DNA from: an uncultured Clostridium sp.
GTDB taxonomy: Bacteria > Bacillota > Clostridia > TANB77 > CAG-465
Assembly: GCA_947361355.1 (NCBI GenBank)
Contig: CANAIR010000004.1
Coordinates: 17,226-81,225, forward strand
Reading direction: 5' to 3'
DNA: 64,000 bases
Part shown: piece after piece, positions 11,197 to 51,021 of the stretch
Position numbering within the stretch: position 1 is the first letter of the stretch
Layout of the letters: each line of letters begins with the position of its first letter
Translations under genes and position numbers: made by a program
Notes under the pieces: generated by a model
The model's database searches: none
What the model saw: only the letters and a program-made list of their open reading frames with translations
What the model was told of the DNA's origin: nothing

Positions 11197-11209
11197 ATAA
11201 ATTCTCCTT

Positions 11210-27285: not shown

Positions 27286-27654
27286 TTATTTATTTTCTAT
27301 TTCTTTATTTTTTTCTAATTCGTCTACTCTTTTTTTCAAAAAGGATACCTCTTGTATTAATGCTGTATTTCGATTAGTCTGTTTTGCAAGTAACATAGTA
27401 AGTGTAAATATAAGATAAAAAGCTATAAAAATCGTAACACAAAATATCATATTTGAAGCCTTCTCAAATCCCAGAAAAGCTGATATAAATTCTATGAGAT
27501 GAGGTATTGCGATTGCAATTATTAACAATAATCCTGTAACAATCCAAAATATAGACATTGATGATTGCATTTTTCTTTTTCTAACAGATCTAATTATTAA
27601 AAATAAATATACTAATGTTATTATAATTAAAACTAATCTAAGAGTAAGTGACAT
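27286..27654 (-). CDS. DUF2304-like small membrane protein (partner of GtrB-like transferases)
   Basis: 122 aa, three to four TM helices and a C-terminal amphipathic or coiled tail. ATG overlaps the upstream stop region. Confidence 0.7.
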   Translation of the reverse strand: MSLTLRLVLIIITLVYLFLIIRSVRKRKMQSSMSIFWIVTGLLLIIAIAIPHLIEFISAFLGFEKASNMIFCVTIFIAFYLIFTLTMLLAKQTNRNTALIQEVSFLKKRVDELEKNKEIENK

Positions 27655-27655
27655 T

Positions 27656-28384: not shown

Positions 28385-28469
28385 AAAAACTCTCCTAACT
28401 TATTATATTTAAATTACATTTTCTTCTTCATACATACTATTTTTGTATTTAATATTTTTTAATTATACA

Positions 28470-30640: not shown

Positions 30641-32470
30641 TTATTTATTGTATTCTATTTTATTTGAATTAATTGCATAAAAAGGTTGGTCAAGCCTAAA
30701 GTTTGGATTAAAATATGGATCACCTTTTTGCAAAACATCTTTCCATTTATTAATAAATTTATTTGCTTCTTCTTGAAGCCTTTCTTGCTTTTCTTTAGTT
30801 GTATCCTGTCCACGAGTTTTTGATTCATAATGATATAATAATACATATGGATTATATACAATTAATTTACCAAGTTTTCTTATTTTAAGACAAAAATCTA
30901 CATCATTATATGAAACCATAAATTCTTCATCAAATCCTTCAACTTCATCATATATACTCTTTTTTACCATCATACATGCAGCTGTTACTGCTGATACATT
31001 ATTTACAACTAAAGACCTAGCCATATATCCTAAACTATTTACATCTGTTCTATAATTTATATGTCCAGCTGTATGATGTGCTCCAAGCCCTAATACAACA
31101 CCAGCATGTTGTATTGTATTATCTGGATACAAAAGTTTTCCTCCAACTGCACCAACATCTTCTCTTTGGCAAAAACCAAGCATTTCTTCTATCCAAGTTT
31201 TCTCAACAATTTCTGTATCATTATTCAAAAATATATAATAATCCCCTGTTGCTTGTTTTACTCCGAAATTATTTATTTTAGAATAATTAAACCCTTTTTC
31301 TTTATAATATACTACCTTTATATTTGCTTCATTTTCAAGTTCTTTATAATACTCAAATATCTCTTTAGATTCACTATTATTCTCGATAATAATAATTTCA
31401 TAATTTTTATATGTTGAAATTTTTATAGAATTAATACATTTTTTCAAATCTTCTAATGAATCTTTATTCGGAATTATTATTGAAACTTTAGGATTTCCAA
31501 TTACATCATAAGTTATTTTGTAATAACCTTTACATTTTCCATCTGTTACAGTTCCTTTAAGACCCAACCTTTTTATATGATCAGTTAATGCTTTTTTTGC
31601 TGCATCATAGCAATATGGTTTTGCTTCTGCAAACATAGCAACTGATAATCTATGTACTCTCCAATGATATAATATTTTTGGAATGTGAATTATATTTTTA
31701 GTAAGTTCAGTGGCCCTTAAAATTATATCATAATCTTGACTTCCATCATATTCCTTTCTTAAACCACCTAACTTGTCCATCAATTCTTTTTTATAAACAC
31801 TAAAATGACAAATATAATTATTAGTTCTAAATAGATCTGGTGCAAAATCTGATTTAAAGTGATAATCATATCTATATATACTTTCTTGATCAATTTTATC
31901 TTCATCAGTATATATAAATTCTACTTCTGGATTTTCATTTATTGTTTTTACTATCTCATACAGACAATCTGGTGACAAAGTATCATCATGATCAAGTAAT
32001 GCGACAAAATCTCCTGTTACATACTTCAAAGTAGCATTTGTATTACCTGATATTCCTTCGTTTTTATCCAATTTTTCATACTTAATTCTTTTATCTGATG
32101 CCACTATTTTATCTATAAAATCAGCCTTATCAGGACTACCATCACCAAGGCACAGTTCCCAATTTCCATAAGTTTGAGCCTTTAGTGAGTCTACCAGTTC
32201 TACGAAAAAATTTTTAGGCGTATTATACATTGGTACTAATATGCTGATTTTTGGATTTTTATCAAATTTTGTTTTTCTTTGACCTTCCAAATCTTTCTTT
32301 GTTGGATCATTATTTTTTATCCATGTATCATAGTCCTTATCTTTTGACTTTATCTTACCATGAAATAGCTCATATATTTTAAAATATACATCACTAAAAA
32401 ACTTTCTTCTTTTACTTCCTCTTGGAAATACCTTATCAATTCCGTTTCTTAATTTACTTTTTATACTCAA
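30641..32470 (-). CDS. two-domain GT2 glycosyltransferase, paralog C
   Basis: 609 aa, TTG start. GT2 domain 1 (ISILVPMYNT...LDHDD) and GT2 domain 2 (VSIIIPNKD...LNNDTE...YHYESKTRG). Confidence 0.85.
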   Translation of the reverse strand: MSIKSKLRNGIDKVFPRGSKRRKFFSDVYFKIYELFHGKIKSKDKDYDTWIKNNDPTKKDLEGQRKTKFDKNPKISILVPMYNTPKNFFVELVDSLKAQTYGNWELCLGDGSPDKADFIDKIVASDKRIKYEKLDKNEGISGNTNATLKYVTGDFVALLDHDDTLSPDCLYEIVKTINENPEVEFIYTDEDKIDQESIYRYDYHFKSDFAPDLFRTNNYICHFSVYKKELMDKLGGLRKEYDGSQDYDIILRATELTKNIIHIPKILYHWRVHRLSVAMFAEAKPYCYDAAKKALTDHIKRLGLKGTVTDGKCKGYYKITYDVIGNPKVSIIIPNKDSLEDLKKCINSIKISTYKNYEIIIIENNSESKEIFEYYKELENEANIKVVYYKEKGFNYSKINNFGVKQATGDYYIFLNNDTEIVEKTWIEEMLGFCQREDVGAVGGKLLYPDNTIQHAGVVLGLGAHHTAGHINYRTDVNSLGYMARSLVVNNVSAVTAACMMVKKSIYDEVEGFDEEFMVSYNDVDFCLKIRKLGKLIVYNPYVLLYHYESKTRGQDTTKEKQERLQEEANKFINKWKDVLQKGDPYFNPNFRLDQPFYAINSNKIEYNK

Positions 32471-32487
32471 TCCTTTTTCCCACCTTT

Positions 32488-34251
32488 TTAATCTTTATTT
32501 ACCAAATAATTTTCAATATCTAATCTTAAATTAGGATTAAAATATCTATCACTTTTCATTTTTTCATACCATTTTTGTTTTAAAATATTTATATCATTTT
32601 CTAAATATATATTATTTTTTGAAATTTTTACATAGTCATTAACCTTTGCAAACGAATTATATACATTTACAAATCCTTTATCTAATAATTTCAAACATAA
32701 ATCTACATCATAAAAATCATTTTCAAAGTTTTTATCATATCCATTTATTATTTCAAAATTTGATTTTTTTATCATCGCACACTTAGAACTTACAGCACTA
32801 TAATTGTTTACAACTACTGCTCTTGAATAATATCCTGGTATAAAGTCTGGTAAATATCTATTAACATTTCCAATATTTCCTTTCATACCGAGTACATAAC
32901 CAGCACTTTCTATTGTGTTATTTGGATATAATATTTTTGCTCCAACCATACCAACATTTTCCCTTTGACATAGTCCCAACATTTCTTCTATAAAGTCAGT
33001 AGTTATTATTCTTATATTAGCATCCATAAATACAATATATTCTCCAGTTGCTTTACTAACTGCTAGATTGTTCATAGTAGCATAATTAATTTTTTCTATA
33101 TTTTCATCTTTTACATTAATTACGCAAATATCAATTACTTTTTTATATATTTCTAAAATTTTGTTAAAATCTACTTTATTATTACCATCATTTATTAATA
33201 ACACTTCTACATTTTTATATGTAGAATTTAATAAATAGTTTAAACATAAACATATTTGTTTATATTTACAGATATTTGATATAATTATTGATACTTTAGT
33301 ATTATTATATAGTTCATAATCTATTTTATAAAATCCTAGTGTAAAACCATGCTTTACTTTTGCTTTTATATTTTTTCTTTCTAAATGAGATGTTAGTGCA
33401 AGAATTGCTGACTCATAGGCGTATGGTTTTGCCTCTGACATCATTGCGGTAGAATTTCTATGCACTCTCCATGAGTATAATACTTTCGGAATATGTACTA
33501 TTTTTTCTGCCATTTCAGTAGCTCTTAAAATTATATCATAATCCTGACTTCCGTCAAACTCACTTCTAAAACCACCTAATTTTTCCATTAAACTTCTTTT
33601 AAATATACTAAGGTGTGTTATATAATTATAACTTCTTAAAGTATCTTCTGAAAAATCTGGTTTAAAAGAAGGATCATATCTATCATTTAAACTATCATGA
33701 AATTTATCTTCATCTGTATAAAGAAATTCAGCATCTGGATTTTCATTTATAGACTTTACTATTTCATAAAGTGTGAATGGAAGTAATAAATCATCATGGT
33801 CAAGAAGTCCAATATAATCTCCTGTTGCAATCTTTAAAGCTCCATTTGTATTATATGATATTCCACCATTTTTGTCCAATTTTTCATATTTTATTCTTTC
33901 ATCACTATTTATTACCTCATCTACATATGCAGGTGTTTTTGGACTACCATCAGCTAAGCAAAGTTCCCAATTTCCATATGTTTGTGATTTTAATGAATCT
34001 ATCATTTGAACAAAAAACTCTTTAGGAGTTTCATACATTGGTACTAATATACTTATTTTTGGCATATTTTCAAATTTAACTTCTTTTTGTCTATTTAACT
34101 CATTTTCATCAGGCTCATTATTTTTAATCCATTCAAGATAATCTTTATTATCAGCATAATCTATAATAGCCTCTTTAGACTTACATCTATACGTTTTATA
34201 TTTCAAAAAGTAATATACTTTTTTTATAAGATTTTTTATTTTAGATTTCAT
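32488..34251 (-). CDS. two-domain GT2 glycosyltransferase, paralog B (second domain degenerate)
   Basis: 587 aa. Domain 1 is intact (ISILVPMYET...LDHDD). Domain 2 has FMDANI in place of LNND(T/V)E and lacks the HYES.TRG motif. Confidence 0.8.
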   Translation of the reverse strand: MKSKIKNLIKKVYYFLKYKTYRCKSKEAIIDYADNKDYLEWIKNNEPDENELNRQKEVKFENMPKISILVPMYETPKEFFVQMIDSLKSQTYGNWELCLADGSPKTPAYVDEVINSDERIKYEKLDKNGGISYNTNGALKIATGDYIGLLDHDDLLLPFTLYEIVKSINENPDAEFLYTDEDKFHDSLNDRYDPSFKPDFSEDTLRSYNYITHLSIFKRSLMEKLGGFRSEFDGSQDYDIILRATEMAEKIVHIPKVLYSWRVHRNSTAMMSEAKPYAYESAILALTSHLERKNIKAKVKHGFTLGFYKIDYELYNNTKVSIIISNICKYKQICLCLNYLLNSTYKNVEVLLINDGNNKVDFNKILEIYKKVIDICVINVKDENIEKINYATMNNLAVSKATGEYIVFMDANIRIITTDFIEEMLGLCQRENVGMVGAKILYPNNTIESAGYVLGMKGNIGNVNRYLPDFIPGYYSRAVVVNNYSAVSSKCAMIKKSNFEIINGYDKNFENDFYDVDLCLKLLDKGFVNVYNSFAKVNDYVKISKNNIYLENDINILKQKWYEKMKSDRYFNPNLRLDIENYLVNKD

Positions 34252-34271
34252 ACTATTTTAAATTTCACCTC

Positions 34272-36095
34272 TTAAATTACTTTCTGCGTAGATATACTAA
34301 ATTTGTCACTTTCTCTAGAAAAATTAATATTAAAATATGGATCTTTTAATTTTGTAATATCACTCCATTTATTAATAAATTTTTCTTTTTCCATTTCAAA
34401 TCTTCTATCTTTTTCAACTGTAAATTCATAACCTCTAGTCATAGACTCATAATGTATCAATTCTATATATGGATTATACACAATTAAATAGCCCTTTTGT
34501 CTTATTTTCAAACAAAAATCAACATCATTAAAAGCTACTTTAAAATCTTCATCCATATAACCTACTTGCTCATATATTTCTCTTTTAGAAAATAAACAAG
34601 CACCAGTAACTGCACTTAAATTTTGTGTTAAGCATTCTCTTGCAAAATATCCATGTGTACCATATTTTATCCTAGTTAAAAGATTAGCAGCTATTCCTCC
34701 AATTCCAATAGCAATACCAGCATGTTGTATAGATTTATCTTTATAGTAAAGTCTAGCTCCAACAGCTCCAACATCTTCTCTTTGACAAAAGCCTATAAAT
34801 TTTTCTAACCAATTTTTAGTTAATAGTTCCACATCATTATTGAGTTGAAGAATATATTCTCCATCTGAATTTTTAACTCCAAAATTAATTATTCTAGAAT
34901 AATTAAATTCATTTTCTAAATATTTTACAACTTTAACATTATGAATATTTGAAATTTTTTCATAATAATCAAATGTACTTTTTTTTACACTATTATTTTC
35001 TACTACTACAATTTCATAGTTCTCATATGTTGTAAGTTTTAAAATAGAATTTATACATCTTTTTAGTAATTTTATATTATCTTTATTTGGAATTACTATA
35101 GAAACTTTAGGTTTACCTATTAAGCTATATTCAACCTCATACACACCTGGAACATCTCCACCTTGAGAAACCTTTGCATCTATATTAAGTCTTTTTAAAT
35201 GATCCTCTATCACCAAAACTCCCGCCTCATAAGCATATGGTTTTGATTCGGATATCATAGCAGTAGAATTTTGATGCACTCTCCAATGATATAATACTTT
35301 AGAAATATGCACTATTTTTTTAGCATTTTCAACTGCTTTTATAATAACATCATAATCTTGCGCTCCATCATATTTAGAGTTAAAGCCACCTATTTTTTCC
35401 ATAAGAGATTTTTTAAATATACTAAAGTGTGTTATATAATTATTTGACCTTAATGTATCAATTGCAAAATCAGGTTTAAAATGAGGATCAAACCTTTCTA
35501 AAGTATCTGAATTTATTTTATCTTCATCAGTATATATAAATTCTACATCTGGATTTTCATTAATACATTTAACAATTTCATACAATGAAAAGTTTGGTAA
35601 TAAATCATCATGATCAAGAAGTCCTATAAAATTACCTGTTGCTAGACTTAAAGCTTCATTCGTATTTCCAGATATTCCTTTATTTTCTCCAATAAATTTA
35701 TATTTAATTCTTTCATCCTTTTTTACAATATCATCTACAAATTCAGCTTTTTTTGGACTTCCATCTGCAAGACAAAGCTCAAAATTTTTGTATGTTTGTC
35801 CTAACACACAATCAACAAGTTGTACAAAAAATTTTTCTTCTGTATTATACATTGGTACCACTAAACTTATTTTTGGCATATTTTTAAAAATTTCTTCTCT
35901 TTGAAGAGCCACTTCATTAAGCGTAGGTTCATTATTTTTTATCCATTCTTTATAGTTTTCTCTTTCAATTTCATAATATGTCTTTTTATTAAACAACTTA
36001 TTATATATTTTTCTATATAATTTTCTTACAGCATTTTTTACACCATATTTTTTTATATATAATTTAGCTTTATTATACACATTTTTTATATTCAT
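34272..36095 (-). CDS. two-domain GT2 glycosyltransferase, paralog A
   Basis: 607 aa. ISLVVPMYNT...LDHDD, then VSIVIPNKD...LNNDVE...IHYESMTRG. Confidence 0.85.
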   Translation of the reverse strand: MNIKNVYNKAKLYIKKYGVKNAVRKLYRKIYNKLFNKKTYYEIERENYKEWIKNNEPTLNEVALQREEIFKNMPKISLVVPMYNTEEKFFVQLVDCVLGQTYKNFELCLADGSPKKAEFVDDIVKKDERIKYKFIGENKGISGNTNEALSLATGNFIGLLDHDDLLPNFSLYEIVKCINENPDVEFIYTDEDKINSDTLERFDPHFKPDFAIDTLRSNNYITHFSIFKKSLMEKIGGFNSKYDGAQDYDVIIKAVENAKKIVHISKVLYHWRVHQNSTAMISESKPYAYEAGVLVIEDHLKRLNIDAKVSQGGDVPGVYEVEYSLIGKPKVSIVIPNKDNIKLLKRCINSILKLTTYENYEIVVVENNSVKKSTFDYYEKISNIHNVKVVKYLENEFNYSRIINFGVKNSDGEYILQLNNDVELLTKNWLEKFIGFCQREDVGAVGARLYYKDKSIQHAGIAIGIGGIAANLLTRIKYGTHGYFARECLTQNLSAVTGACLFSKREIYEQVGYMDEDFKVAFNDVDFCLKIRQKGYLIVYNPYIELIHYESMTRGYEFTVEKDRRFEMEKEKFINKWSDITKLKDPYFNINFSRESDKFSISTQKVI

Positions 36096-36119: not shown

Positions 36120-37907
36120 CTATTTTTTTCTCATGTTTTCTCCAATTTTTCTTAGTGGCTCTGTAATTTTCCATGCCCTTGAATCATATATTCCCGTTAA
36201 TTCATTTTTTAAATTTTCTATCTGCTCTTTTAAAATTTTTATTTCATTATCTTTATTTTCAATTTTATTTTCTAGCATTATAATTTTATTGTTTAACTTT
36301 TCTTCATTTACTCTTAAATTTAATACATAAGTTCCTTTAGTATGTAAATTCCACATGATTTCATTTCTTATCTTTTCTTGAATTTTATCATCTAATTTAT
36401 CGAATAATCTAATCTTATCCTTACTTATGTCTAATACTTCAAACAACTCTTCATCACTAATATATTTTTTTATTCTTGTAAAATATTTTATTGCTCTATA
36501 TATAATAAATTCAAAAGGTAAATTTTCCTCTATCCATTCTTGGTCATAAAAATAAAATTCTCCATTTATATAAAAACAATTTTGAAATACTAAATCCCAT
36601 AAACCATTTTTTATAAAAGTCATATTTTTAATATCTTTTTTTTCGTATTCAACATTATATTTATCAAAAACATTTTCACAACTTTTATCTTCTGACTTTT
36701 CTAATTTTTGTAGCAACTCTTCACCAAAAAGTTTCATTAAATTTATTGCTTCATCTTTTTTTGAAGCTTTTACTAAATCAACTATAACTTTATCTAATGT
36801 ATGCGCATTTACATATTTACTGATTATTTTTTCTTCATCATATGAGTCAACAGTTTTTAAATTTGATTTTTTTATTATTTCTATATTTTTCTTTATGTTA
36901 TCTAAATGTTTTTTACTACAACTATTTCCAGAATATTTATATACATATTCATCTTCCATTATTGTTTTTATTTTATACTCTGGTTTTCTCATATTAGAAA
37001 ATGATACAAAACGAATATTTTTAGTTTTTATGTCACAATTACTTATCTCTACTAAATAAGAATTGGCAAACATTTTAAATGTATTACTTTCCTCTTGTAT
37101 AATATCTCTATATATTGGATTTTCTTCATAAAACTTAATTGTATCTTCACTATTATATACAATATTTCTTGATAGATTATCCTTTGATAATAACTTATCA
37201 TCAGAAAATATTGCATTTGTTAACTTATAATCTGGCATAGGATAATATACTTTTTTATATTTTAAGTCAAATTTTTCTATAACCCTCAAAATATCTTCTA
37301 AAGTATACAGTTTTTTATATGTACTATTTGTCACACTTATTCCTGTATTATCTGTTTTTGAAAAATACTTCATACCTAATTTATTATCAACAGCTATTAA
37401 TATTGTTCCATTTTCTTTCAAATATTTTTTTAGTAAATTTATAAAATCATCTAACTTACAATTACTTACACTGTTTATATTTTCTAAAGTTCCAACAAGT
37501 GTAATATAATCAAATTTTTCATTTATATCAATATTTTCTAAACTTCCTACTATCACTTCTAAATTTTGGACATCTTCATATCTCTTTTTTATAGCACTTG
37601 CTTTTTTTAGAGAATTTTCTATTGACACAACTCTTGAAGCATTTTTGCATAATACTTCTGTTAATTCTCCAAAATTAGGGCAAATTTCTAAAATAGCAGC
37701 CTCTTTGCCAAATGGATACCAATCTAATATATTTTGTCTATTTTTTGAAAGTGCAAGTATAACATCTAAATTAACATTCTCTTGCATTATTTTATAATAA
37801 TCTTCTTTATTATTTTCATTTATTATCTTTATAATTTCCTCTTCCTGTGCTGTCAAAGTTTCTTCTTGCTCTTTATAAAAATCCAAATTTAATTTCAAGC
37901 AACTCAC
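36120..37907 (-). CDS. WbdD-like protein: methyltransferase-fold N-domain (degenerate SAM loop) + kinase-like middle domain + coiled-coil tail
   Basis: 595 aa, GTG start (TTG 37898 is an alternative). LEICPNFGELT in place of the ExGxGxG loop. WDLVFQN...YDQEW spacing resembles a kinase catalytic loop plus metal-binding Asp. Heptad-rich tail ending YDSRAWKITEPLRKI. Confidence 0.6.
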   Translation of the reverse strand: MSCLKLNLDFYKEQEETLTAQEEEIIKIINENNKEDYYKIMQENVNLDVILALSKNRQNILDWYPFGKEAAILEICPNFGELTEVLCKNASRVVSIENSLKKASAIKKRYEDVQNLEVIVGSLENIDINEKFDYITLVGTLENINSVSNCKLDDFINLLKKYLKENGTILIAVDNKLGMKYFSKTDNTGISVTNSTYKKLYTLEDILRVIEKFDLKYKKVYYPMPDYKLTNAIFSDDKLLSKDNLSRNIVYNSEDTIKFYEENPIYRDIIQEESNTFKMFANSYLVEISNCDIKTKNIRFVSFSNMRKPEYKIKTIMEDEYVYKYSGNSCSKKHLDNIKKNIEIIKKSNLKTVDSYDEEKIISKYVNAHTLDKVIVDLVKASKKDEAINLMKLFGEELLQKLEKSEDKSCENVFDKYNVEYEKKDIKNMTFIKNGLWDLVFQNCFYINGEFYFYDQEWIEENLPFEFIIYRAIKYFTRIKKYISDEELFEVLDISKDKIRLFDKLDDKIQEKIRNEIMWNLHTKGTYVLNLRVNEEKLNNKIIMLENKIENKDNEIKILKEQIENLKNELTGIYDSRAWKITEPLRKIGENMRKK

Positions 37908-37931
37908 CTCATTTGATTTATTATATATATT

Positions 37932-39071
37932 CTATACTAATTTTTTAAATATATTTACGCTATCAAGTTTTTCCCAACAACATTCAACTAATTTTTTTTC
38001 ATCTAAATATTCTCTTCCAAAATGTCCACCATTACATGAATTAGAGTATACAGGTGTACGTAAATTTAATTTTTCAATTATTCCCTTTGGAGATAAATCA
38101 AAATTTTCATAAATTGCTTTTATTATTTTTTCTTCATCAACTTTATTTGTACCTTTACAATTTACACTAATAGAAATAGGTTGTGCAACTCCTATTGCAT
38201 ATGAAAGTTGAATTAAACATTCACTCGCAATTTTAGAAGCCACAATATTTTTAGATAAATATCTTGCCATATATGCAGCAGATCTATCAACTTTTGTAGG
38301 ATCTTTTCCAGAAAAAGCTCCCCCACCATGTGGAGCATAACCACCATAAGTATCTACTATTATTTTTCTTCCAGTAAGTCCTGCATCACCCTCAGGTCCA
38401 CCAATTACAAATCTACCCGTTGGATTTATAAGGATATTAAAATCTTCATTTAGTTTATATTTTCTTGCTACTACCTTCATAATATGTTCTACTATATATT
38501 TTTTAAACTTATCCTCATCATAATTTGCATCATGTTGTATTGACATTAATATAGTATCAACTTTAACTTGCTTTTGTGTATAATCTAGTGTTACTTGTGA
38601 TTTCATATCAGGTCCTGCCCACAAAAACTTACCTGATTTTCTAAGATCTGTTGCAAGTTTTACAAGTTCATGTGCCATAGTAATTGCAAGAGGCATATAC
38701 TGCGGTGTTTCACTATTTGCAAAACCAAACATAATACCTTGATCACCAGCCCCACCAACATCATCATTTGTTCCTAAAGCAATATCTTGCGACTGTTTTT
38801 GCAACAAATTTAATACTCTTGGTGTATATGTATAACCTATATTTTTTATAACTTTTTTTGCAATTTCTTCAACATTTATATTAGCTTTTGTTGTTATTTC
38901 ACCAGCAAGAATTACAAAATCACCTTTTACCATTGTCTCACATGCTACTCTTGAATATTTATCTTCCCTTAAACATGCGTCAAGTATTGAATCTGATATC
39001 ATATCACATACATGGTCGGGATGTCCAATTGAAACCGCCTCAGATGTAAATAGCCTTCTAAATTCACTCAT
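37932..39071 (-). CDS. metK: S-adenosylmethionine synthetase
   Basis: 379 aa. FTSEAVSIGHPDHVCD, GAGDQGIMFGFA and DTYGG motifs. Confidence 0.93.
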   Translation of the reverse strand: MSEFRRLFTSEAVSIGHPDHVCDMISDSILDACLREDKYSRVACETMVKGDFVILAGEITTKANINVEEIAKKVIKNIGYTYTPRVLNLLQKQSQDIALGTNDDVGGAGDQGIMFGFANSETPQYMPLAITMAHELVKLATDLRKSGKFLWAGPDMKSQVTLDYTQKQVKVDTILMSIQHDANYDEDKFKKYIVEHIMKVVARKYKLNEDFNILINPTGRFVIGGPEGDAGLTGRKIIVDTYGGYAPHGGGAFSGKDPTKVDRSAAYMARYLSKNIVASKIASECLIQLSYAIGVAQPISISVNCKGTNKVDEEKIIKAIYENFDLSPKGIIEKLNLRTPVYSNSCNGGHFGREYLDEKKLVECCWEKLDSVNIFKKLV

Positions 39072-39089
39072 ATTTTTACCTCACTTCTA

Positions 39090-40379
39090 TTATTTTGATT
39101 TTAATTTTCTATTTATCTTTCTTATTATTCCTGTATATTTCCAAGTCCTTGAATGATATATTTTTTCAAGTTCATCTTTTAACATATCACATTGATTTAT
39201 AGCCTTAGTAGCTGTAACTTCTAATTCATTTATATTTTCTTTTTCTGTTTTATATCTATTAGAAAAAAACTCACATATTTTTTCATTTTCTTTACTTTTA
39301 GTTTGAATACTTTCTTTTAGTATATTTGAAATACTATTTACCTCTACTACTTCCCTTTTATTTTTCTTGTCAAAATCTAATTTTTCCTTTTCAAAAATAC
39401 CTTTACTATTTTTTGTTATCATATACAATTCATCAACTTCATTTTTACTGTTAAAAACAGCAAAATCAATTTCTCTTTCTAAAGGCTCTTTACTACATTC
39501 AATAAAAAATGAATTTGAAAAAAAGTCAAATTGATTCTCTTTTATAACCTCTTTATATGCTTTTTTTTCATCAAAGTTAAGTATTGTTTTATCATAATAA
39601 TACACATCGTATAAATTATCTATATCATCTTCAGTTGGTAAGCACTCATCACTAAATATTACATTAGGTAACTTATAATCTGGTAATGGATAATAAAATC
39701 TAATATTATCTAAATTATTTCTTTTAAGTATAGACTTTATTTGTTCTTTTCCAAAAGTCATAGGTCCCTTTTTATTTGCATAACCTAAAATGCCATCATA
39801 TTTTATACTTGTATGATCTTCAACTGCACCAGCAAAATATTTCATACCAAATTGATTTTCTATTGCAATTAAGATTTTACCATCATCTTTTAATAATTTT
39901 TTTATATTACACAAAAATTCATCGAAAGGATTTTCAGAATTTGTAAACATGTTTGCATATTCAAATACCCCAATTAATGTAATATAATCAAATTTTTTAT
40001 CAAACTTTATATCATTTAAATTTCCAACAATAAGTTCTAAATTTTCAAAATCTTGATATTTAGCTTCTATAACACTTGCCCTTTGTTTTGAAAGCTCTAC
40101 TGCTGTTACTGTTTTAGCATTTTTGCAAAGGACACCAGTCATTGCTCCAAGACCAGCACCGATTTCTAATATATCAGAATTATTTTTAAAAGGATACCAA
40201 TTTAGCATATTTTGTCTTATTGAAGTAAGGTGATAAAAAACGGGCCATCTCATATCATTTAAAAAAACATCATTATACTTATTTATTGGCGTATTTTTTA
40301 CATATTCTAAAATTTCTTTTTCTACTTCACCATCAGAATATAAATCTTCACCTTTATAATAATCATAATTAACTTTCAT
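39090..40379 (-). CDS. class I SAM-dependent methyltransferase with C-terminal coiled-coil tail
   Basis: 429 aa. Intact motif I (ILEIGAGLGAMT). N-domain paralogous to the 595-aa protein. Tail ends YHSRTWKYTGIIRKI. Confidence 0.8.
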   Translation of the reverse strand: MKVNYDYYKGEDLYSDGEVEKEILEYVKNTPINKYNDVFLNDMRWPVFYHLTSIRQNMLNWYPFKNNSDILEIGAGLGAMTGVLCKNAKTVTAVELSKQRASVIEAKYQDFENLELIVGNLNDIKFDKKFDYITLIGVFEYANMFTNSENPFDEFLCNIKKLLKDDGKILIAIENQFGMKYFAGAVEDHTSIKYDGILGYANKKGPMTFGKEQIKSILKRNNLDNIRFYYPLPDYKLPNVIFSDECLPTEDDIDNLYDVYYYDKTILNFDEKKAYKEVIKENQFDFFSNSFFIECSKEPLEREIDFAVFNSKNEVDELYMITKNSKGIFEKEKLDFDKKNKREVVEVNSISNILKESIQTKSKENEKICEFFSNRYKTEKENINELEVTATKAINQCDMLKDELEKIYHSRTWKYTGIIRKINRKLKSK

Positions 40380-40381
40380 AT

Positions 40382-41722
40382 TTACTCTCCTTTTTTTAGC
40401 TCAATTTGTGTTTTTAAATCAAATAATCCTAAACAATCTCTATTTGCAAGAACTTCAATAAATATAGCATCATATTTTCTTTGAAAAGCCTCAAGATTTC
40501 CATTATTATCTAGTCTAGTACATCCAAATGATACAGTATATTTATCTGGTGCAAGTGGAACAATTTGCCTAAATTCTATTATTACAACATCTCCCTTTTG
40601 ATAAGTTCCAGTTATTTTTTTATACGCATATGTATTAACACCACATACTTCTAATCCCTTAAAATCTTTTATTGACATTGCAAAAATAGGTTCATCTACT
40701 AGTTCATTAAATCTTACTTTCATTTTTATAATAATTTCTTCATTATTGTTTATAGAATTAATATAATTATTATTCAAATCAAATATACCATAATCGATTA
40801 TTTCAGCTTTGCCATTACCATAGATTATAGTATCAGGATTTAAAGTGAAGTTATCTTTCCACACCTCACCTTTTTGCTCTACTCTTTTAATTTCATTAAT
40901 CTCATAAGCATTTGAATCTTTTTCATCATTTTTTTGATCTTCAATTTGCTTTTGATCTAATCCAACTATTATTTTTTTATATTTATCTACACCTTGCTTT
41001 ACATTTCCGTCATATATTTTTCTTCCACCTGATATGATAATTGCTCTATTACAGTTTTTTATTACATCAACTATACTATGTGTAACGAATAAAATTGTTT
41101 TGCCTCTTTTTTTAAATTCTTCAAATTTTTTAAAACATTTTAATTGGAAAGCCATATCACCTACTGATAAAACTTCATCTACAATTAAAACTTCTGGATC
41201 AACATTTATAGCACATGCAAATGCAAGACGTGCAAACATACCTGAAGAATATGTTTTTACAGGTTGTGATAAATGTTCACCTATATCTGCAAAATCTATA
41301 ATTTCTTGTTCTTTTTGTTTTATTTGTTCTTTTGTAAGTCCCATTACAAGACCATTTTGATATATATTTTCGTAACCAGTAAGCTCAGGATTAAATGCTG
41401 TACCAAGTTCTAAAAGAGAACTAATTTTACCATTTACATTTATACTACCTGATGTAGGTGTTACAACACCCGTTATCATCTTTAAAAGTGTAGATTTACC
41501 AGCACCATTTTTCCCAAGAATTCCTACTACTTCGCCTTTTTTTACATCAAGATTTAAATCATCCATTGCTTTAAATGTGCTGTGCTTATTTATTCTTGGA
41601 AACATAGTTTCAAGTAATCTATCTAACTTTCTATTATACATTTTGTATTCTTTAGTTAAATTTTTAATACTGATAATAGTATCATCATTACTATTAGCCA
41701 CATTTTGTATGTTATTACTCAT
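40382..41722 (-). CDS. wzt: polysaccharide ABC exporter ATP-binding protein with extended C-terminal (Wzt_C-like) domain
   Basis: 446 aa. Walker A (GKNGAGKST), signature (YSSGMFARLAF), Walker B (LIVDE). About 200 extra residues beyond the ATPase core. Confidence 0.88.
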   Translation of the reverse strand: MSNNIQNVANSNDDTIISIKNLTKEYKMYNRKLDRLLETMFPRINKHSTFKAMDDLNLDVKKGEVVGILGKNGAGKSTLLKMITGVVTPTSGSINVNGKISSLLELGTAFNPELTGYENIYQNGLVMGLTKEQIKQKEQEIIDFADIGEHLSQPVKTYSSGMFARLAFACAINVDPEVLIVDEVLSVGDMAFQLKCFKKFEEFKKRGKTILFVTHSIVDVIKNCNRAIIISGGRKIYDGNVKQGVDKYKKIIVGLDQKQIEDQKNDEKDSNAYEINEIKRVEQKGEVWKDNFTLNPDTIIYGNGKAEIIDYGIFDLNNNYINSINNNEEIIIKMKVRFNELVDEPIFAMSIKDFKGLEVCGVNTYAYKKITGTYQKGDVVIIEFRQIVPLAPDKYTVSFGCTRLDNNGNLEAFQRKYDAIFIEVLANRDCLGLFDLKTQIELKKGE

Positions 41723-41726
41723 TAAA

Positions 41727-42716
41727 TTATTTCACATCCTTTTTGTTTGTTATTAATAATTTTAAATTATACATTAACCTTACTACAATTGGAACATTCA
41801 TTATACAAAATAGTGATATATAAAAAGTTAGTCTATCATTTTTATATAACTTATGAAATGTTGACAATTTTCTAAAATTTATATTCTTTTTATTTTTTAC
41901 CATTTTATAATAATCAATTGCTTTTTTATTTAATTCATTTTGCTCTTTTGTAAAAAGTTTAGTATAATTTAAAAAAGTATCAAAATTTTTTATTCTAATA
42001 TCAATCAAATGATTTCTAACAGATTCAAAATCATTATACTTATCTACATATCTTGATGTTCCAACCTGATTATCTATATGCTGCCTATACTTAATTGTTG
42101 GTTTATCTAAATATGCAACTTTTCCACTTAAAGCTACATTAATACCAATCCAATAATCATACAATATGTTTTCATTATCAGGTATTGGTAATATTTTATC
42201 TATAATACTAGCCTTTGAAAGTATAGTACAACCTGTAATTGTATTATATAATATTTCCAACTCATATCCTTTATATATACATTTTTTAATTTTATAATCA
42301 TATTCTTTTAATCTGTTAAATGAAAAGAAAATAGTATTTGCATTCTCATCAACAACTTCTAAATCAGTAAATACTAAATCAGCATCTTCTTTAATTAATT
42401 TTTCATAAGATAATTTTACTTTATCTTTCATCCATATATCATCTTGATCTGCAAACATAAAATAATTGCTTTCTACTTTTTCAAGCAAAAATTGAAATGT
42501 TTTATCAGATCCAATATTCTTCTCGTTTTTAAATAATATTATTCTTTCATCTTTTTTTTCATATTCTTCAAGTATTTTGAAAGTATTATCAGTTGAACAA
42601 TCATCACATATTAAAAGTCTAAAGTTTTCATATGTTTGATTAAGTATAGAATCCATCAATTCTTTTAGATATTTTTGCCCATTATATGTAGCAAGTAATA
42701 TATCAATTTTTTCCAT
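41727..42716 (-). CDS. family 2 glycosyltransferase (rhamnosyltransferase-like, WbbL/RgpB type)
   Basis: 329 aa. ILLATYNGQKYLKELMDSILNQTY...CDDCSTD...ADQDDIW. Confidence 0.8.
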   Translation of the reverse strand: MEKIDILLATYNGQKYLKELMDSILNQTYENFRLLICDDCSTDNTFKILEEYEKKDERIILFKNEKNIGSDKTFQFLLEKVESNYFMFADQDDIWMKDKVKLSYEKLIKEDADLVFTDLEVVDENANTIFFSFNRLKEYDYKIKKCIYKGYELEILYNTITGCTILSKASIIDKILPIPDNENILYDYWIGINVALSGKVAYLDKPTIKYRQHIDNQVGTSRYVDKYNDFESVRNHLIDIRIKNFDTFLNYTKLFTKEQNELNKKAIDYYKMVKNKKNINFRKLSTFHKLYKNDRLTFYISLFCIMNVPIVVRLMYNLKLLITNKKDVK

Positions 42717-42727
42717 ATCATTTCTCC

Positions 42728-43519
42728 TTACAGTACATCTGCAAAGTCTTTTTTATTTTTTCTAAATACATAGTTACTCCAAAAAAACATTATAACTACA
42801 ATAACCCAAAACACAATTGTTGGAATACCACACATAGCAAGTATATGTGACTCCCCAGTAAAAGCACGTCTTAATCCATTTACCAAATATGTAAATGGTA
42901 AACAATTAACTATTTTATAAAGTAACTGATGACCTTCTAACATTGATATATTCCACATTATTGGTGTAAACCAAAACATAAGCTGCATAAGAACATTTAA
43001 AAGTTGTGTAAAATCTGGCACTAATGTACATACAGCAGACGTAAATCTAGTTATTGTAATAACTAAAGCATATGCTGCAAGTATAAGATAAACAAATTCT
43101 AATACATTTACAAAATAACCAACAAAAGCACATACAACAATCGATATTCCAAATAAGAAAAATCCAATAATACTTGTAGATGTAAGAGATATTACTGGTA
43201 TTATATCAACGGGAAAAACTACCTTTTTAACAAGATAACTATATGTTCTAATAGACGCACTTGCATTAATTATACTATCATTTAAAAACATCCACATTGA
43301 CATACCTGGTAAAAACCATACAATATATGGATAATTTCCAGCACTTCCAGTTTTTAAAATATATTGAAATACTATAACATATGTCATCATAAATATAAAT
43401 GGTTGAATAAATCCCCATATTAAACCTAAACTTGTACTTGCAAATCTATTTTTAAAATCACTTTTACCTAACTGTAAAATTATTTTTTTATTCTTAAATA
43501 ATGTTTTTATAAAATCCAT
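42728..43519 (-). CDS. wzm: polysaccharide ABC exporter permease (ABC-2 type)
   Basis: 263 aa, six TM helices, N-terminal KSDFKNRFASTSLGLIWGFIQP motif typical of Wzm/TagG. Confidence 0.88.
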   Translation of the reverse strand: MDFIKTLFKNKKIILQLGKSDFKNRFASTSLGLIWGFIQPFIFMMTYVIVFQYILKTGSAGNYPYIVWFLPGMSMWMFLNDSIINASASIRTYSYLVKKVVFPVDIIPVISLTSTSIIGFFLFGISIVVCAFVGYFVNVLEFVYLILAAYALVITITRFTSAVCTLVPDFTQLLNVLMQLMFWFTPIMWNISMLEGHQLLYKIVNCLPFTYLVNGLRRAFTGESHILAMCGIPTIVFWVIVVIMFFWSNYVFRKNKKDFADVL

Positions 43520-43687: not shown

Positions 43688-43972
43688 TTAAAGCTGTTTT
43701 AAACTTAAACAATAATTTTTCATTTCCACATCTGTTAAAATGTTAAAAATTTTTTCAAATTCCTCTGGTCGTTTATAAAATATTTTTTTAATTACTTTCT
43801 TACAATTTGACAAAAATCCATTTTTACATTCATCAAAATCCTTACCTCTATTTTCTTTAAAATCATAAATACTAGTTGCTACAATTTTCCCATCTGCTAT
43901 TTCTAGTTTATACACCACTGGCAAATCATCTAAATATACTCTGTATTTTTTCATTTTTGTTATAGTATCCAT
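43688..43972 (-). CDS. hypothetical protein (94 aa)
   Basis: ORF with GGAGG RBS and its own terminator. No family recognised. Confidence 0.55.
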   Translation of the reverse strand: MDTITKMKKYRVYLDDLPVVYKLEIADGKIVATSIYDFKENRGKDFDECKNGFLSNCKKVIKKIFYKRPEEFEKIFNILTDVEMKNYCLSLKQL

Positions 43973-45770: not shown

Positions 45771-46733
45771 TTAATAATCTTTATTTGCATACCACGCAAT
45801 AGTTCTTCTTAAACCTTCTTCAACTGTAACAGATGGTTCCCATCCAAGTTCTCTTTTTATTTTTGAAGAATTAATAGCATATCTATAGTCATGACCTTTT
45901 CTATCTTCAACAAATGTTATTAAGTCTTCTGATTTTCCAAGTTCTTTTAATATAGTTTTTACAATATCTATATTTGTTTTTTCATTATTTCCACCAACGT
46001 TATATACTTCGCCTTTTACACCTTTATGTAAAACTGTATCAATAGCAATACAATGATCAAGTACAAACAACCAATCACGTATATTTTTACCATTACCATA
46101 TACAGGCAATTTTTCTCCTGCTTTTGCTTTTTTTATCATAAGTGGAATTAATTTTTCTTCATGTTGATTTGGCCCATAATTATTTGAACATCTAGTAATA
46201 CAAACATTCATATTAAATGTTTCACAATATGCTCTAACAACTAAATCAGAACCTGCCTTTGAAGCTGAATATGGACTATTTGGTGCAAGTGGTAATGTTT
46301 CAACAAACATCTCATCGCCATCTTTTAAAGTACCATATACTTCATCTGTTGATACATGAACAAACCTATTATTAGAACCTTCGCCCCATACTCTTTTGCA
46401 AGCTTCAATAAGTGCATGTGTACCCATTACATTATTTTCTGTAAATGTTAGCGGTCTTTTTATACTATTGTCAACATGAGATTCAGCAGCAAAATGTACA
46501 ACAGCGTCTATTTCATATTTTTTTAAAGTTTCTACATCCTTATCTAAATCACAGATATCTGCCTCTACTAATGTATACTTACCTTCTGATGGCTTTAAAT
46601 TATCAATGTTAGCTGCATATGTCATCTTGTCATATACAATATAACTATATTTATCTCCATATTTTTCTACCATATGATTAACAAAGTTTGAACCTATAAA
46701 TCCAGCTCCACCAGTTATTAAAATATTTTTCAT
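45771..46733 (-). CDS. rfbB: dTDP-glucose 4,6-dehydratase
   Basis: 320 aa. TGGAGFIGSNF, STDEVYG and YSASKA motifs. Confidence 0.93.
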   Translation of the reverse strand: MKNILITGGAGFIGSNFVNHMVEKYGDKYSYIVYDKMTYAANIDNLKPSEGKYTLVEADICDLDKDVETLKKYEIDAVVHFAAESHVDNSIKRPLTFTENNVMGTHALIEACKRVWGEGSNNRFVHVSTDEVYGTLKDGDEMFVETLPLAPNSPYSASKAGSDLVVRAYCETFNMNVCITRCSNNYGPNQHEEKLIPLMIKKAKAGEKLPVYGNGKNIRDWLFVLDHCIAIDTVLHKGVKGEVYNVGGNNEKTNIDIVKTILKELGKSEDLITFVEDRKGHDYRYAINSSKIKRELGWEPSVTVEEGLRRTIAWYANKDY

Positions 46734-46762
46734 TTTTATTCCTCCATTTATTATATTAAAAT

Positions 46763-46906
46763 TTATTTAAAATATAGTAGTAAACCTATAACTGCCGAAA
46801 ATCCAAGTATTAAAAACACAAATATTAATGTTAACAATATAGATAATCTATCTCTTGCTGGCAAATCATCTACATTACTTTTTTTAACTTCAATTTCTTC
46901 ACTCAT
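46763..46906 (-). CDS. 47-aa single-pass membrane micro-protein inside the rml operon
   Basis: Not in the ORF track. Own translation: MSEEIEVKKSNVDDLPARDRLSILLTLIFVFLILGFSAVIGLLLYFK behind AAGAGGTGA. Confidence 0.5.
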   Translation of the reverse strand: MSEEIEVKKSNVDDLPARDRLSILLTLIFVFLILGFSAVIGLLLYFK

Positions 46907-46926
46907 ATATATCACCTCTTAAAACT

Positions 46927-47505
46927 TTATAAATTTTTAAATAAATCAGTTTTGCTTAATTCTTTTAAGCTTGGCCATTTTCCATCTTTTTCAGAAGTTA
47001 TTAAGTCACCTTCACTAATACCTTTCATTGGCCAATTTATATTTACATCAGGATCATTCCATGCAAGTCCACCTTCTGCTTTAGGATTATATAAATCATC
47101 ACATTTATATGTAAATTCAGCTTCATCAGATAAAACTAGAAAACCATGTGCAAAGCCTCTTGGTATCATAAACATTTTTTTATTTTCTTCTGAAAGTATA
47201 ACGCCTTCCCATTTTCCGTATGTTTTGCTACCAGGTCTTAAATCAACTGCTACATCAAATACTTCACCTTTTATAACTCTAACAAGTTTTGCTTGAGTAT
47301 TTTCACTTTGAAAATGTAGACCCCTTAAAACACCTTTTCTAGACTTAGATTGATTATCTTGTACAAATTTATTTGTTATTCCAATTTCTGCAAATTCAGA
47401 TTCACTATATGTTTCCATAAAGTAACCTCTATCATCTCCAAAAACCCTTGGTTCAATAACATAAACACCATCTATACTTGTTTCTATTTTACTAAAATTA
47501 GACAT
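46927..47505 (-). CDS. rfbC: dTDP-4-dehydrorhamnose 3,5-epimerase
   Basis: 192 aa. FGDDRGYFMETY, RGLHFQ and PRGFAHGF motifs. Confidence 0.93.
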   Translation of the reverse strand: MSNFSKIETSIDGVYVIEPRVFGDDRGYFMETYSESEFAEIGITNKFVQDNQSKSRKGVLRGLHFQSENTQAKLVRVIKGEVFDVAVDLRPGSKTYGKWEGVILSEENKKMFMIPRGFAHGFLVLSDEAEFTYKCDDLYNPKAEGGLAWNDPDVNINWPMKGISEGDLITSEKDGKWPSLKELSKTDLFKNL

Positions 47506-47542
47506 TTAACTACCTTCTTTCAAATCTTTTTATTAATATTTT

Positions 47543-48412
47543 CTATATATCTTTAACAACTTTTTTTATATATTTACCATAATCAGTTTTTTTATATTTT
47601 TCTGCAATAGCAATAGTTTGGTCTTTTGTAATCCAACCGTTTTTAAATGCTATTTCTTCTAAACAAGCTATTTGTGTTCCTTGTCTAAGTTCAATAGCCT
47701 TTACAAAGTCAGCTGCATCATTTAATCTATCAGGAGTACCTGTATCAAACCACGCAAAGCCACGACCAAGAGGAATAACTTTTAATTTACCTTTTTGCAT
47801 ATATACTTTATTTATATCAGTTATTTCAAGTTCACCTCTAGCAGAAGGTTTTATTTCATTTGCTATCTTTACAACATTGTTATCATAAAAATAAAGTCCT
47901 GGGACAGCTAAATTAGATTTTGGATTTTCAGGTTTTTCTTCAATAGATAAAGCTGTACCATTATCATCCATTTCTACAACACCGTAAGATGTAGGATCAG
48001 AAACTTCGTAACCAAATATTACTCCACCTTCTTTTAAAGAACTAGCATCTTTTAACATATTTTCAAGTCCTGGCCCATATATCATGTTATCACCAAGTAT
48101 TAATGATACATTATCATCACCTATAAAATCAGCGCCTAATCTAAAAGCATCCGCAAGTCCTACTGGCTTTTCTTGTATTTTATAGTCAAGTTTCATTCCA
48201 AGATTACTACCATCACCAAGCAAAGTTTTAAACATTTCCAAATGCACTGGCGTAGATATTATTAAGATTTCATTTATCCCTGCTTGCATCAAAGTCGACA
48301 GTGGATAATATATCATTGGTTTATCGTAAACTGGAAGTAATTGCTTTGAAACAGCAAGAGTTATAGGATAAAGTCTTGTACCACTACCACCAGCAAGTAT
48401 AATTCCTTTCAT
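47543..48412 (-). CDS. rfbA: glucose-1-phosphate thymidylyltransferase
   Basis: 289 aa. [18 protein letters not shown]...[17 protein letters not shown]. Confidence 0.95.
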
Positions 48413-48414
48413 AA

Positions 48415-49275
48415 TTACTCTCCTTTCAAATACTCTTTTAGCATATTTTCATAACTTTCTGGGAAAATACCTACACTATGTAATTTTTCCTTTGATAATT
48501 TTGAGTTATGAGGCCTTTTAGTTGGTGTAGGGAAAGCATCAGAATCTACTGGATTAACCTTTATATCTATACCTTTTAATTCAAATATCTTTTTTGCAAA
48601 TTCATACCAAGTTGTAAAGCCTTCATTTGTAGAATGATATATTCCATATTCTGGTTCTTTTTCTAAAATTTGTTCTATTATCTTGCATAAAGTTGTAGTT
48701 GAAGTTGGACTTCCATGTTGATCAGCAACAACATTTAATTCATCATGATCTTTGGCAAGTTTTAACATTGTTCTTACAAAGTTATTTCCTTGACCATATA
48801 ACCACGCTGTTCTTAATATATAATGTCTACTTGCCTTAGCAGCATTTTGCTCTCCTAAATATTTAGTTTTACCATATGCACTAACAGGATCTGGCTTCAT
48901 ATCTTCTGTATATGCTTTATCTGTTTCTAACTCACCATTAAACACATAATCGGTACTTATTTGTATAAATCTAGCATCTACTAAATTAGCAGCCTTTGCA
49001 ATATTTCCAACCGCAACACCATTTACAGAATTTGCAAGCTCATAATTTGTCTCACATCCATCAACATTTGTATATGCAGCACAATTTATTATAAAATATG
49101 GTTTTATTTCCTCTACTCTTTTACATACTGCCTCTTCATCACAAATATCTAACGTTTGCAAGGTAGTACCATACATCTCATACTCTGGATTTTTTTCAAG
49201 GCGTGAATATAACTCACTACCAAGCATTCCATCTTGTCCAATTACTAATATTTTTTTCATTTTTATCTCCTCCAT
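48415..49275 (-). CDS. rfbD: dTDP-4-dehydrorhamnose reductase
   Basis: 286 aa. Rossmann N-terminus, STDYVF and YGKTK motifs. Confidence 0.92.
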
Positions 49276-50685: not shown

Positions 50686-51021
50686 TATACCACCTGCCAT
50701 GATTATATCATAAAGAAATCAAAAAAAAAAGTTTTTTTGACAAAAAAATATAGTTTGCAAATTTCAAAAAATTTACATAAAAATATTTATTTTTCAAGCT
50801 TTATGAATATTAAAAGGTTTATATTATACAAGGTTTAAATAATTAATACAAAATAAATAAATGAAATAAAATTAAATAATAGAAAAGAACTAACACTAAC
50901 ACTTTAGTATAAATTTTTTATATAAATATTTTACTTTATTATAGTTATAATACTTTTACTGTATTAATTCACATTTTACTATACTTAATTTTTTTACAAG
51001 TATTTAATAAAAAAGTAAAGA

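Follow-up and report, generated by a model that had tools for sequence, protein, structure and literature searches.

A putative two-protein chain terminator for an ABC-exported, rhamnose-based glycan in an uncultured Clostridium

Introduction

How does a Gram-positive bacterium that exports a rhamnose glycan through an ATP-binding cassette (ABC) transporter end its chains, and what sets their size? The stopping and sizing of such glycans in Gram-positives is largely unresolved, and the question is raised again by an operon in a stretch of 64,000 nucleotides (nt), hereafter the window, from an uncultured Clostridium sp. (GTDB lineage Bacteria; Bacillota; Clostridia; TANB77; CAG-465; GenBank assembly GCA_947361355.1, contig CANAIR010000004.1, positions 17,226 to 81,225 of the forward strand; coordinates below count from the first letter of the window). 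Downstream of the exporter genes wzm and wzt, this operon encodes two proteins with a methyltransferase-like N-terminal part and a shared C-terminal motif: MT429, of 429 amino acids (aa), and MTX595, an open reading frame (ORF) of 595 aa. An earlier note, made from the sequence alone, had read them as a divided version of the Escherichia coli chain terminator WbdD. The analysis presented here leads to another family, that of ORF6 of Klebsiella pneumoniae O7, and to a reading that we consider fairly probable, namely that the operon builds a rhamnose-based surface glycan via the ABC-transporter-dependent route, and that a two-protein terminator finishes the chains.

Neither the cap-and-read logic nor the O7-type terminator is new in itself. 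What is new is the host group (Clostridia), the subfunctionalised form in which two paralogs are present and one has a methyltransferase domain that is probably decayed, the S-adenosylmethionine (SAM) synthetase gene metK embedded in the operon, a binding-module cassette that travels with the methyltransferase, and the size of a family whose kinase domain is invisible to Pfam. The locus is an indication that the cap-and-read logic of Gram-negatives operates in uncultured gut Clostridia too, in one clade at the least.

Family assignment

The relatives of both proteins are of the type of the N-terminal part of K. pneumoniae O7 ORF6 (ORF6-N). ORF6 consists of an N-terminal methyltransferase, a coiled coil and two C-terminal modules of glycosyltransferase family 2 (GT2), and its 'unannotated 223-aa' domain is a kinase without sequence similarity to known kinases, whose nearest fold is AmiN, an enzyme like the aminoglycoside phosphotransferases (APH) (Kelly, Whitfield and co-workers, J Biol Chem 2024, PMC11231755). 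In vitro, this protein adds a phosphate and then a methyl group onto a rhamnose-terminated acceptor, and the D441A replacement kills phosphorylation; a G91A,G93A construct, which alters the glycines of motif I, is also listed, and orthologs were reported only in alpha- and gammaproteobacteria and cyanobacteria (PMC11231755). The ORF6-N sequence used here was reconstructed from the text of Supporting Information (SI) Fig. 9 of that paper and is partial and derived by optical character recognition; it served to retrieve two full-length O7-type orthologs from PLSDB, a fused 1457-aa protein encoded on a Pseudomonas asturiensis plasmid and a standalone 649-aa protein from Citrobacter braakii pF217-3, where the gene context comprises rfbBACD, wzm, wzt, the terminator gene and glycosyltransferase genes.

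MT429 matches ORF6-N in BLASTP (E=8e-45, 33% identity over 299 aa). For the MTX595 family, hhalign gives a probability of 99.4% against ORF6-N (E=5e-21) and of 99.5% against the C. braakii protein (E=2e-22), in the latter case over 387 columns that run through both domains and pair VYKY of MTX with VFKY, WDLVFQN with LDAIPSN, and FYDQEW with YFEREW. D438 of MTX595 is paired with the aspartate of LDAIPSN, the same residue that aligns to the mutated D441 in SI Fig. 9 (PMC11231755). MTX595 alone also finds the C. braakii ortholog in BLASTP (E=2e-20, approximately 24% identity), and a reciprocal tblastn search with MTX595 against all PLSDB plasmids, which might also have shown a clostridial relative (the C. 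butyricum counterpart of C. difficile orf10), returned only the two O7-type genes, both proteobacterial.

The polymerase half of ORF6 also has its counterpart. Immediately downstream of MTX595, the gene of GT607 (34272..36095, minus strand) encodes a double-GT2, polymerase-type glycosyltransferase of 607 aa, which is 36% identical over 623 aa (E=8e-136) to residues 843-1450 of the P. asturiensis ORF6-like fusion, i.e. to its C-terminal half. GT607 adjoins the MTX gene almost throughout the related loci, which were collected from 63 species-level genomes, all metagenome-assembled genomes (MAGs) of uncultured gut Clostridia from rabbit, chicken, human, mouse and sheep. Judged by sequence, MTX595 and GT607 are a split, diverged ORF6(O7). 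The window holds three such double-GT2 paralogs in tandem (30641-36095), of which only the GT607 type is kept beside the terminator in the related loci.

Membership of the WbdD family, as proposed in the earlier note, had to be given up: the catalytic domains do not align to those of WbdD. The E. coli HS (O9) WbdD from RefSeq was taken as reference and a 30-sequence WbdD alignment was built, of which hhalign matched to the MTX family the last 42 columns only (92.8% probability, E=4e-7). They hold the last part of the coiled coil and the motif after it, which is SxSWRxTxPxR in WbdD and NSKSWKITKPLRKI on the clostridial side, and the best BLASTP segment between MTX595 and WbdD pairs IYDSRAWKITEPLRKIG with IHRSRSWRMTKGYRYLG. 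A single-sequence hhalign comparison reached 36% probability, at motif I only, and phmmer and profile searches of PDB sequences gave generic methyltransferases, WbdD not being listed. PF00069 and PF01636 are absent from MTX595 and 58 relatives, whereas WbdD homologs match both. What MTX595 has in common with WbdD of E. coli O9a and K. pneumoniae O3 (PDB 4AZS, 4UW0) is the order of methyltransferase fold, kinase-like fold and coiled coil, the SxSW[RK]xTxPxR motif after the coiled coil, and the logic of a cap that is read by Wzt. It differs in the lack of detectable homology in either catalytic domain, and in its end, since MTX595 continues for about 20 residues after the motif and WbdD for about 100 more.

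The kinase of MTX595

MTX595 (36120..37907, minus strand) comprises, from its AlphaFold2 model, Foldseek matches and hhalign alignments, a decayed methyltransferase-like domain (residues ~45-290, with LEICPNFGELT at 73-83), a predicted kinase domain (~295-525), a coiled coil (528-574) and the C-terminal motif YDSRAWKITEPLRKI (574-588). The GTG start of the 595-aa ORF at 37907 falls within a ribosome-binding site, GAGGTG, and the true start is likely the TTG at 37898 (both starts lie in 37896-37907, minus strand), which yields 592 aa starting with MKLNLDFYK and matches the homologs; an exact-sequence lookup of the 595-aa ORF was unsuccessful, probably because of this displaced start.

The whole-protein model, computed with 43 homologs in the alignment, has a mean predicted local distance difference test (pLDDT) of 87 and a predicted template modelling score (pTM) of 0.81. 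In its Foldseek search WbdD was aligned over 511-598 columns, with template modelling (TM) scores of 0.23-0.32, and the methyltransferase domain dominated the ranking; as this was not decisive, the middle domain (291-535) was modelled separately (pLDDT 90, pTM 0.86). The best 50 PDB matches of the isolated domain were all protein-kinase-like folds, among them APH(3')-Ia (E=4e-5, TM 0.46-0.50), the choline kinase LicA, APH(2''), PRPK/Bud32 and a RIO-type kinase, so that the kinase-like fold suspected in the earlier note is found in the model. Of the motif spacing on which that suspicion was based, WDLVFQN (residues 437-443, 36579-36599) and YDQEW (454-458, 36534-36548) are present, but they are separated by 10 residues and not 12, the latter being the distance from N443 to D455.

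Are these the remains of a pseudokinase? K324, presumably the lysine of beta-3, D438, the presumed catalytic base, and N443 and D455, which would bind the metal, are invariant in the 43 close homologs and in 58 representatives at 24-44% identity; the catalytic loop W437-D438-L-V-F-Q-N443 and the metal-binding D455-Q-E-W458 are encoded at 36534..36599 (minus strand). Going by the model and this conservation, the middle domain appears to be a working kinase rather than a pseudokinase. It was not picked up by Pfam, NCBIfam, phmmer or profile searches of the PDB, all of which gave methyltransferase matches or noise only, and a kinase-only profile run against PDB sequences gave noise as well (E>0.1). 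A kinase-domain profile retrieves 1024 cluster representatives (50% identity clusters) at E<=1e-3, some of which are fused to GT2, RgpF or WbsX modules; the cluster names of the long fused relatives were looked up, and none had one. Three related loci (L010, L011 and L012) encode MTX-type proteins of 924-927 aa, like P0113, which are lengthened at the N-terminus by some 330 aa without Pfam match.

MT429, metK and the binding module of Wzt

MT429 (39090..40379, minus strand) has an intact class I methyltransferase domain (residues 1 to ~300; Pfam methyltransferase models, E=5e-12), followed by vestigial first kinase strands, a helical tail and the C-terminal motif YHSRTWKYTGIIRKI. It is 36% identical to MTX595, the similarity being located in the first ~300 residues, and the two can indeed be called paralogs as the earlier note had it; they are however not adjacent, as a complete metK (37932..39071, minus strand; TIGR01034, E=4e-149, with three S-AdoMet_synt Pfam domains) lies between them, with gaps of 18 and 24 nt to its neighbours. 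The remnant of kinase strands, in which FAVFNSKNE of MT429 aligns with FVSFSNMRKPE, suggests that MT429 derived from an MTX-like ancestor via loss of the kinase domain. The database names seen for relatives of MT429 are generic ones such as methyltransferase or hypothetical protein.

Upstream of MT429, wzt (40382..41722, minus strand) encodes a protein of 446 aa, made of an ATPase domain (~20-260; PF00005 at residues 54-184, E=1e-24) that matches Aquifex Wzt 8dku/7k2t (E=4e-72), and of a tail that proves to be a carbohydrate-binding module, as had been expected of it: Wzt_C (PF14524, E=3.8e-32) covers 140 of 143 profile positions at residues 300-436. Identity of this module to that of the window Wzt is 57-73% in the 10 related loci that carry an MT429-type gene and 42-54% in MT429-negative loci, without overlap (Mann-Whitney p=9e-7, 10 vs 46 loci), and the ATPase domain differs little (77% vs 74%). 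Two further loci, found via MT429 homologs 49% and 62% identical to MT429, both have an MTX-type gene immediately downstream, and their binding modules are 60% identical to that of the window, inside the predicted range. One related locus (L054, 9992-12538, plus strand) encodes both proteins as a single chain of 846 aa, in which an intact MT429-type module (63% identical) precedes a complete MTX-type protein with its degenerate methyltransferase-like domain, kinase, coiled coil and end motif. A metK gene also accompanies MT429, as it is found in 8 of 11 MT429-positive loci (window included) vs 8 of 53 MT429-negative ones (Fisher p=3e-4).

Do MT429 and MTX595 act on the same chain end? They could instead be two independent terminators, MT429 methylating a sugar hydroxyl in the manner of O8 WbdD and MTX595 adding a plain phosphate, either as alternative caps or on two different glycans produced by the three double-GT2 paralogs. 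The architecture of MT429, methyltransferase plus helical tail without kinase, is that of O8-type WbdD (PMC3482155); its family is large (4004 matches in a word-filtered search); most MTX loci have no MT429-type gene, and the window contains three polymerase-like paralogs. However, the locus has a single Wzm/Wzt exporter and a single binding module, the L054 fusion joins both activities in one chain, among characterised proteins MT429 is closest to a domain that methylates phosphate, and both loci sampled via MT429 homologs have the MTX-type gene, all of which make two unconnected terminators rather unlikely. The cooperation proposed in the earlier note is therefore backed by the fusion, the covariation and the recurring gene pair, with the restriction that the 429-aa partner is accessory.

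Of the 63 related loci, 16 have metK within the operon, at varying positions, for instance upstream of wzt in L007. In L055 (rabbit gut MAG contig CANRGL010000003.1), wzm, wzt, rmlB and metK are 79-92% and MT429 is 70% identical to the window, and the MTX-type gene is only 35% identical, with a fully degenerate motif I; a diverged MTX gene among conserved flanks suggests that the terminator gene was replaced as a cassette.

Decay of the methyltransferase domain in MTX595

The earlier note had described an intact SAM loop in the 429-aa protein (LEIGAGLGAMT) and a degenerate one in the 595-aa protein (LEICPNFGELT). Both loops, as well as the two C-terminal motifs, are found in the proteins, and the contrast extends well beyond the loop. 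In a signature alignment of three O7-type modules, ten MT429-type and twelve MTX-type proteins, the window MT429 retains 70 of the 137 O7-invariant columns and the window MTX595 44, and about 20 residues that are invariant in the O7 type and every sampled MT429-type protein are at 0% in the MTX type. Those lost include YxDG, a Trp, YH, the central Gly of motif I, the Tyr of EY, the Glu of ENQ, and EDH, while MT429 retains YxDG, YH, GAGxGA, EY and EDH. MTX595 has C76 and N78 at both motif I glycines altered in the G91A,G93A construct of ORF6. Across the 63 loci, motif I of the MT429 type is always LEIGAG[ML]GA...V[ED]LS; in the MTX type it goes from GANxGE, NANYGE, ESNLGE and CPNFGE to unalignable or deleted forms in which the acidic residue of beta-2 is lost. 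On this pattern, the methyltransferase-like domain of MTX is decayed and probably kept as a scaffold.

Could MTX595 still be bifunctional, binding SAM through a non-canonical motif I (CPNFG/GANxG), so that MT429 would add another methyl group, for example an O-methyl on rhamnose, and a higher SAM demand would explain metK? E97, G80 and T83 are conserved across the MTX family, Pfam methyltransferase models still match (E=3e-6), and L001, L002, L008 and L009 carry metK without an MT429-type gene. Against this stand the ~20 signature residues missing in all sampled MTX-type proteins, the substitution of both glycine positions, and the many MTX-type proteins with an unalignable or deleted motif I and no beta-2 acidic residue, which argue that there is no selection for catalysis; a bifunctional MTX595 therefore appears quite unlikely, and a division of labour between the two paralogs is preferred.

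Coiled coil and end motif

The coiled coil and the end motif SxxW[KR]xTxPxR, the part of MTX595 in common with WbdD, are encoded at 36138..36326 (minus strand) and are indicated by the model helix, the heptads and hhalign. In the model, one long helix (528-574) is followed by the motif helix, and 12 of 14 a/d positions between 528 and 574 are hydrophobic, which bears out a coiled coil in this protein. The distance from DQEW to SxxW ranges from 111 to 150 residues across homologs, with 47 of 59 values in two mod-7 length classes, as expected of insertions and deletions of whole heptads. By analogy, this coiled coil fits a length-adjustable spacer and may act as a ruler, an adjustable-length coiled-coil spacer having been demonstrated for WbdD. 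In the window, the end motif occurs in MT429 and MTX595 only. The fused Pseudomonas protein has a degenerate form of it, SYSRRLAAPLRH, where the coiled coil meets the polymerase module.

That the kinase and the methyltransferase would decorate internal residues with phosphate or O-methyl groups, metK then serving every repeat unit, is suggested by a SAM synthetase inside a glycan operon, i.e. by a flux above one methyl per chain, but is very improbable for proteins that are homologous to an experimentally demonstrated terminator, carry the coiled coil and WbdD-type end motif that are the hallmark of terminators, and are accompanied by a Wzt_C module covarying with MT429.

A proposed termination pathway

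In the pathway that can be drawn from these observations, MTX595 would act first, on the undecaprenyl-linked chain while it grows, and add a phosphate to the sugar at its non-reducing end, which is most likely rhamnose. For chain termination in E. coli O9a, phosphorylation by itself suffices (PMC3482155). MT429 would then methylate the terminal phosphate, using SAM supplied by the co-expressed MetK. Since they share the helical tail and the SxxW[KR]xTxPxR motif, MTX595 and MT429 probably dock at the same place, by GT607 at the membrane, where the coiled coil of MTX595 would set the distance between polymerase and capping site. The binding module of Wzt would recognise the finished cap, presumably a methyl-phosphate, and license export by Wzm/Wzt, the glycan being possibly destined for the wall or an S-layer. 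Where MT429 is missing, as in 53 of 63 loci, chains would end in a phosphate without methyl group, and Wzt would read it with another type of binding module.

Several points weigh against this reading. The kinase region is invisible to Pfam and PDB sequence models, and the kinase part alone gives no significant match to the partial, OCR-derived O7 sequence; homology of the kinase thus depends on one full-length profile alignment plus the predicted fold. MTX595 retains both the ribose-binding Glu (E97) and the final motif I Gly (G80) and may therefore bind SAM residually, and the decay of motif I in MTX proteins shows no clear relation to the presence of MT429. The MT429-type gene is present in 10 of 63 related loci only, so that, as far as gene content tells, MT429 is an accessory partner and the second step is not general to the family. 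Its tail is only weakly heptad (0.45-0.55), and the heptad-rich tails claimed for both proteins in the earlier note are accordingly strong in MTX595 but weak in MT429. The covariation of MT429 with the binding module could partly reflect linkage of adjacent DNA and shared ancestry; the MT429-positive modules are no closer than others to proteobacterial O7-type modules, and to the E. coli O9 module they are closer only slightly, at 64 vs 53 bits for the others, with overlapping ranges. Finally, metK may simply be a housekeeping copy.

To what extent could the scheme be generalized? A tentative extension, which we regard as possible but rather doubtful, is that gut Clostridia hold a natural series of O7-derived terminators, in which a kinase-only protein with a pseudo-methyltransferase domain would make a bare-phosphate cap by default, a second paralog, often with metK, would upgrade it to methyl-phosphate, and a matched Wzt module cassette would travel along; the same family would then stand behind phosphate-capped glycans of Gram-positives such as that of C. 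difficile SLCT-11 (orf10). Such naturally separated kinase and methyltransferase, in loci with and without the latter, offer a ready comparison of the part of each step in termination and in export recognition.

Comparison with known systems

The O7 ORF6 type resembles the window locus in its methyltransferase module, its Pfam-invisible kinase of ~220 aa with an aligned catalytic Asp, the coiled coil after the kinase, the position of the gene after wzm-wzt and beside rml genes, the homologous double-GT2 polymerase and the rhamnose context. It differs in that the window host is a member of the Clostridia, one bifunctional module is divided between two paralogs, the polymerase is a separate gene, the MTX595 model has no Ig-like binding module between kinase and coiled coil, and metK lies within the operon. 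MT429 has the same outline as WbdD of E. coli O8 and K. pneumoniae O5 (methyltransferase plus helical tail, no kinase), a likeness of architecture; its nearest characterised relative is the O7 phosphate methyltransferase, and it stands alongside a kinase paralog.

A precedent within the Clostridia is the S-layer glycan of C. difficile SLCT-11 (Richards et al., J Biol Chem 2018, PMC6254364), which is made of Rha/Glc/Ribf repeats, is ABC-exported and ends in 2,3-cyclophosphoryl-rhamnose without methyl. In its locus (strain Ox247, Table S1), wzm and wzt with Wzt_C are followed by orf10, listed as 'AdoMet_MTase / glycosyltransferase', and the capping enzyme was not assigned (PMC6254364). The two systems are alike in being clostridial and ABC-dependent, in a rhamnose-rich glycan, in a phosphate cap (proposed for the window) and in a methyltransferase-annotated gene after wzt(Wzt_C); SLCT-11 has an initiating transferase and a protein ligase, whereas the window has neither. 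By analogy of position, orf10 of Ox247 is a candidate MTX-type kinase terminator, and the MTX family is a concrete candidate for the enzyme of the SLCT-11 phosphate cap.

The streptococcal and lactococcal Rgp/Gac loci also have rmlABCD, a Wzm/Wzt-type exporter, multi-domain GT2 polymerases and a GT2 + DUF2304 pair resembling GacI/GacJ, and their initiating enzyme is likewise encoded elsewhere. For these loci, a 2022 review (PMC9574508) presents termination as a proposal only, via a capping sugar (RgpE), an untested idea; the words 'methyltransferase' and 'WbdD' are absent from the whole review, and no exporter binding module is described in the parts consulted.

Genomic setting

The first gene of the unit is wzm (42728..43519, minus strand; PF01061, E=7e-13), which encodes the ABC-2 permease of the glycan exporter, and it is preceded by a terminator-like hairpin (43641-43611) and a promoter-like site (43585-43557). 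It is followed by a gene for a single-domain GT2 glycosyltransferase of 329 aa (41727..42716, minus strand; PF00535, E=3e-26), syntenic in most related loci, and then by wzt, MT429, metK, MTX595, GT607 with its 587-aa and 609-aa paralogs (30641..34251, minus strand; PF00535 twice in each), a DUF7657/DUF7654 membrane protein and the GT2 + DUF2304 pair. All genes of the unit lie on the minus strand, which holds nearly every gene of the window (G+C ~25%), and their intergenic gaps are as short as 2-24 nt.

Upstream, rmlB, rmlC, rmlA, rmlD and a gene of the phosphoglucomutase/phosphomannomutase family (45771..50700, minus strand; Pfam E=1e-64 to 1e-92) would supply dTDP-rhamnose, and beyond them lie mreBCD and a transpeptidase of the penicillin-binding protein 2 type. 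The link to rhamnose made in the earlier note is borne out by these rml genes and by the homologs of rhamnosyltransferase-type polymerases. It had also reported that the window has no initiating phosphoglycosyl transferase or LytR-CpsA-Psr (LCP) type ligase, and no Pfam domain of either kind was found among window ORFs of at least 120 aa. A scan of the window for Rfam families, SAM riboswitches included, gave no match. Between the rml genes and wzm, two minus-strand ORFs of 248 aa (44296-45042) and 94 aa (43688-43972) have no family assignment, their sole match being a sub-threshold KH domain.

Downstream, the GT2 + DUF2304 pair, the DUF7657/DUF7654 protein (715 aa) and a 567-aa DUF2142 membrane protein (27286-30617 and 18216-19919, minus strand) resemble a GacI/GacJ-type system in which undecaprenyl-phosphate-sugar provides side chains outside the membrane. 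Further along the same strand (10426-14788), a cohesin-domain protein adjoins one of 1192 aa that combines a transglutaminase core and Ig domains with a dockerin at the C-terminus; they form a cellulosome-style pair without obvious glycoside hydrolase. The sole sizeable plus-strand gene near the glycan locus encodes an ISL3-family transposase (25679-26869), which stands between this locus and a 1317-aa Big_2/SH3 surface protein.

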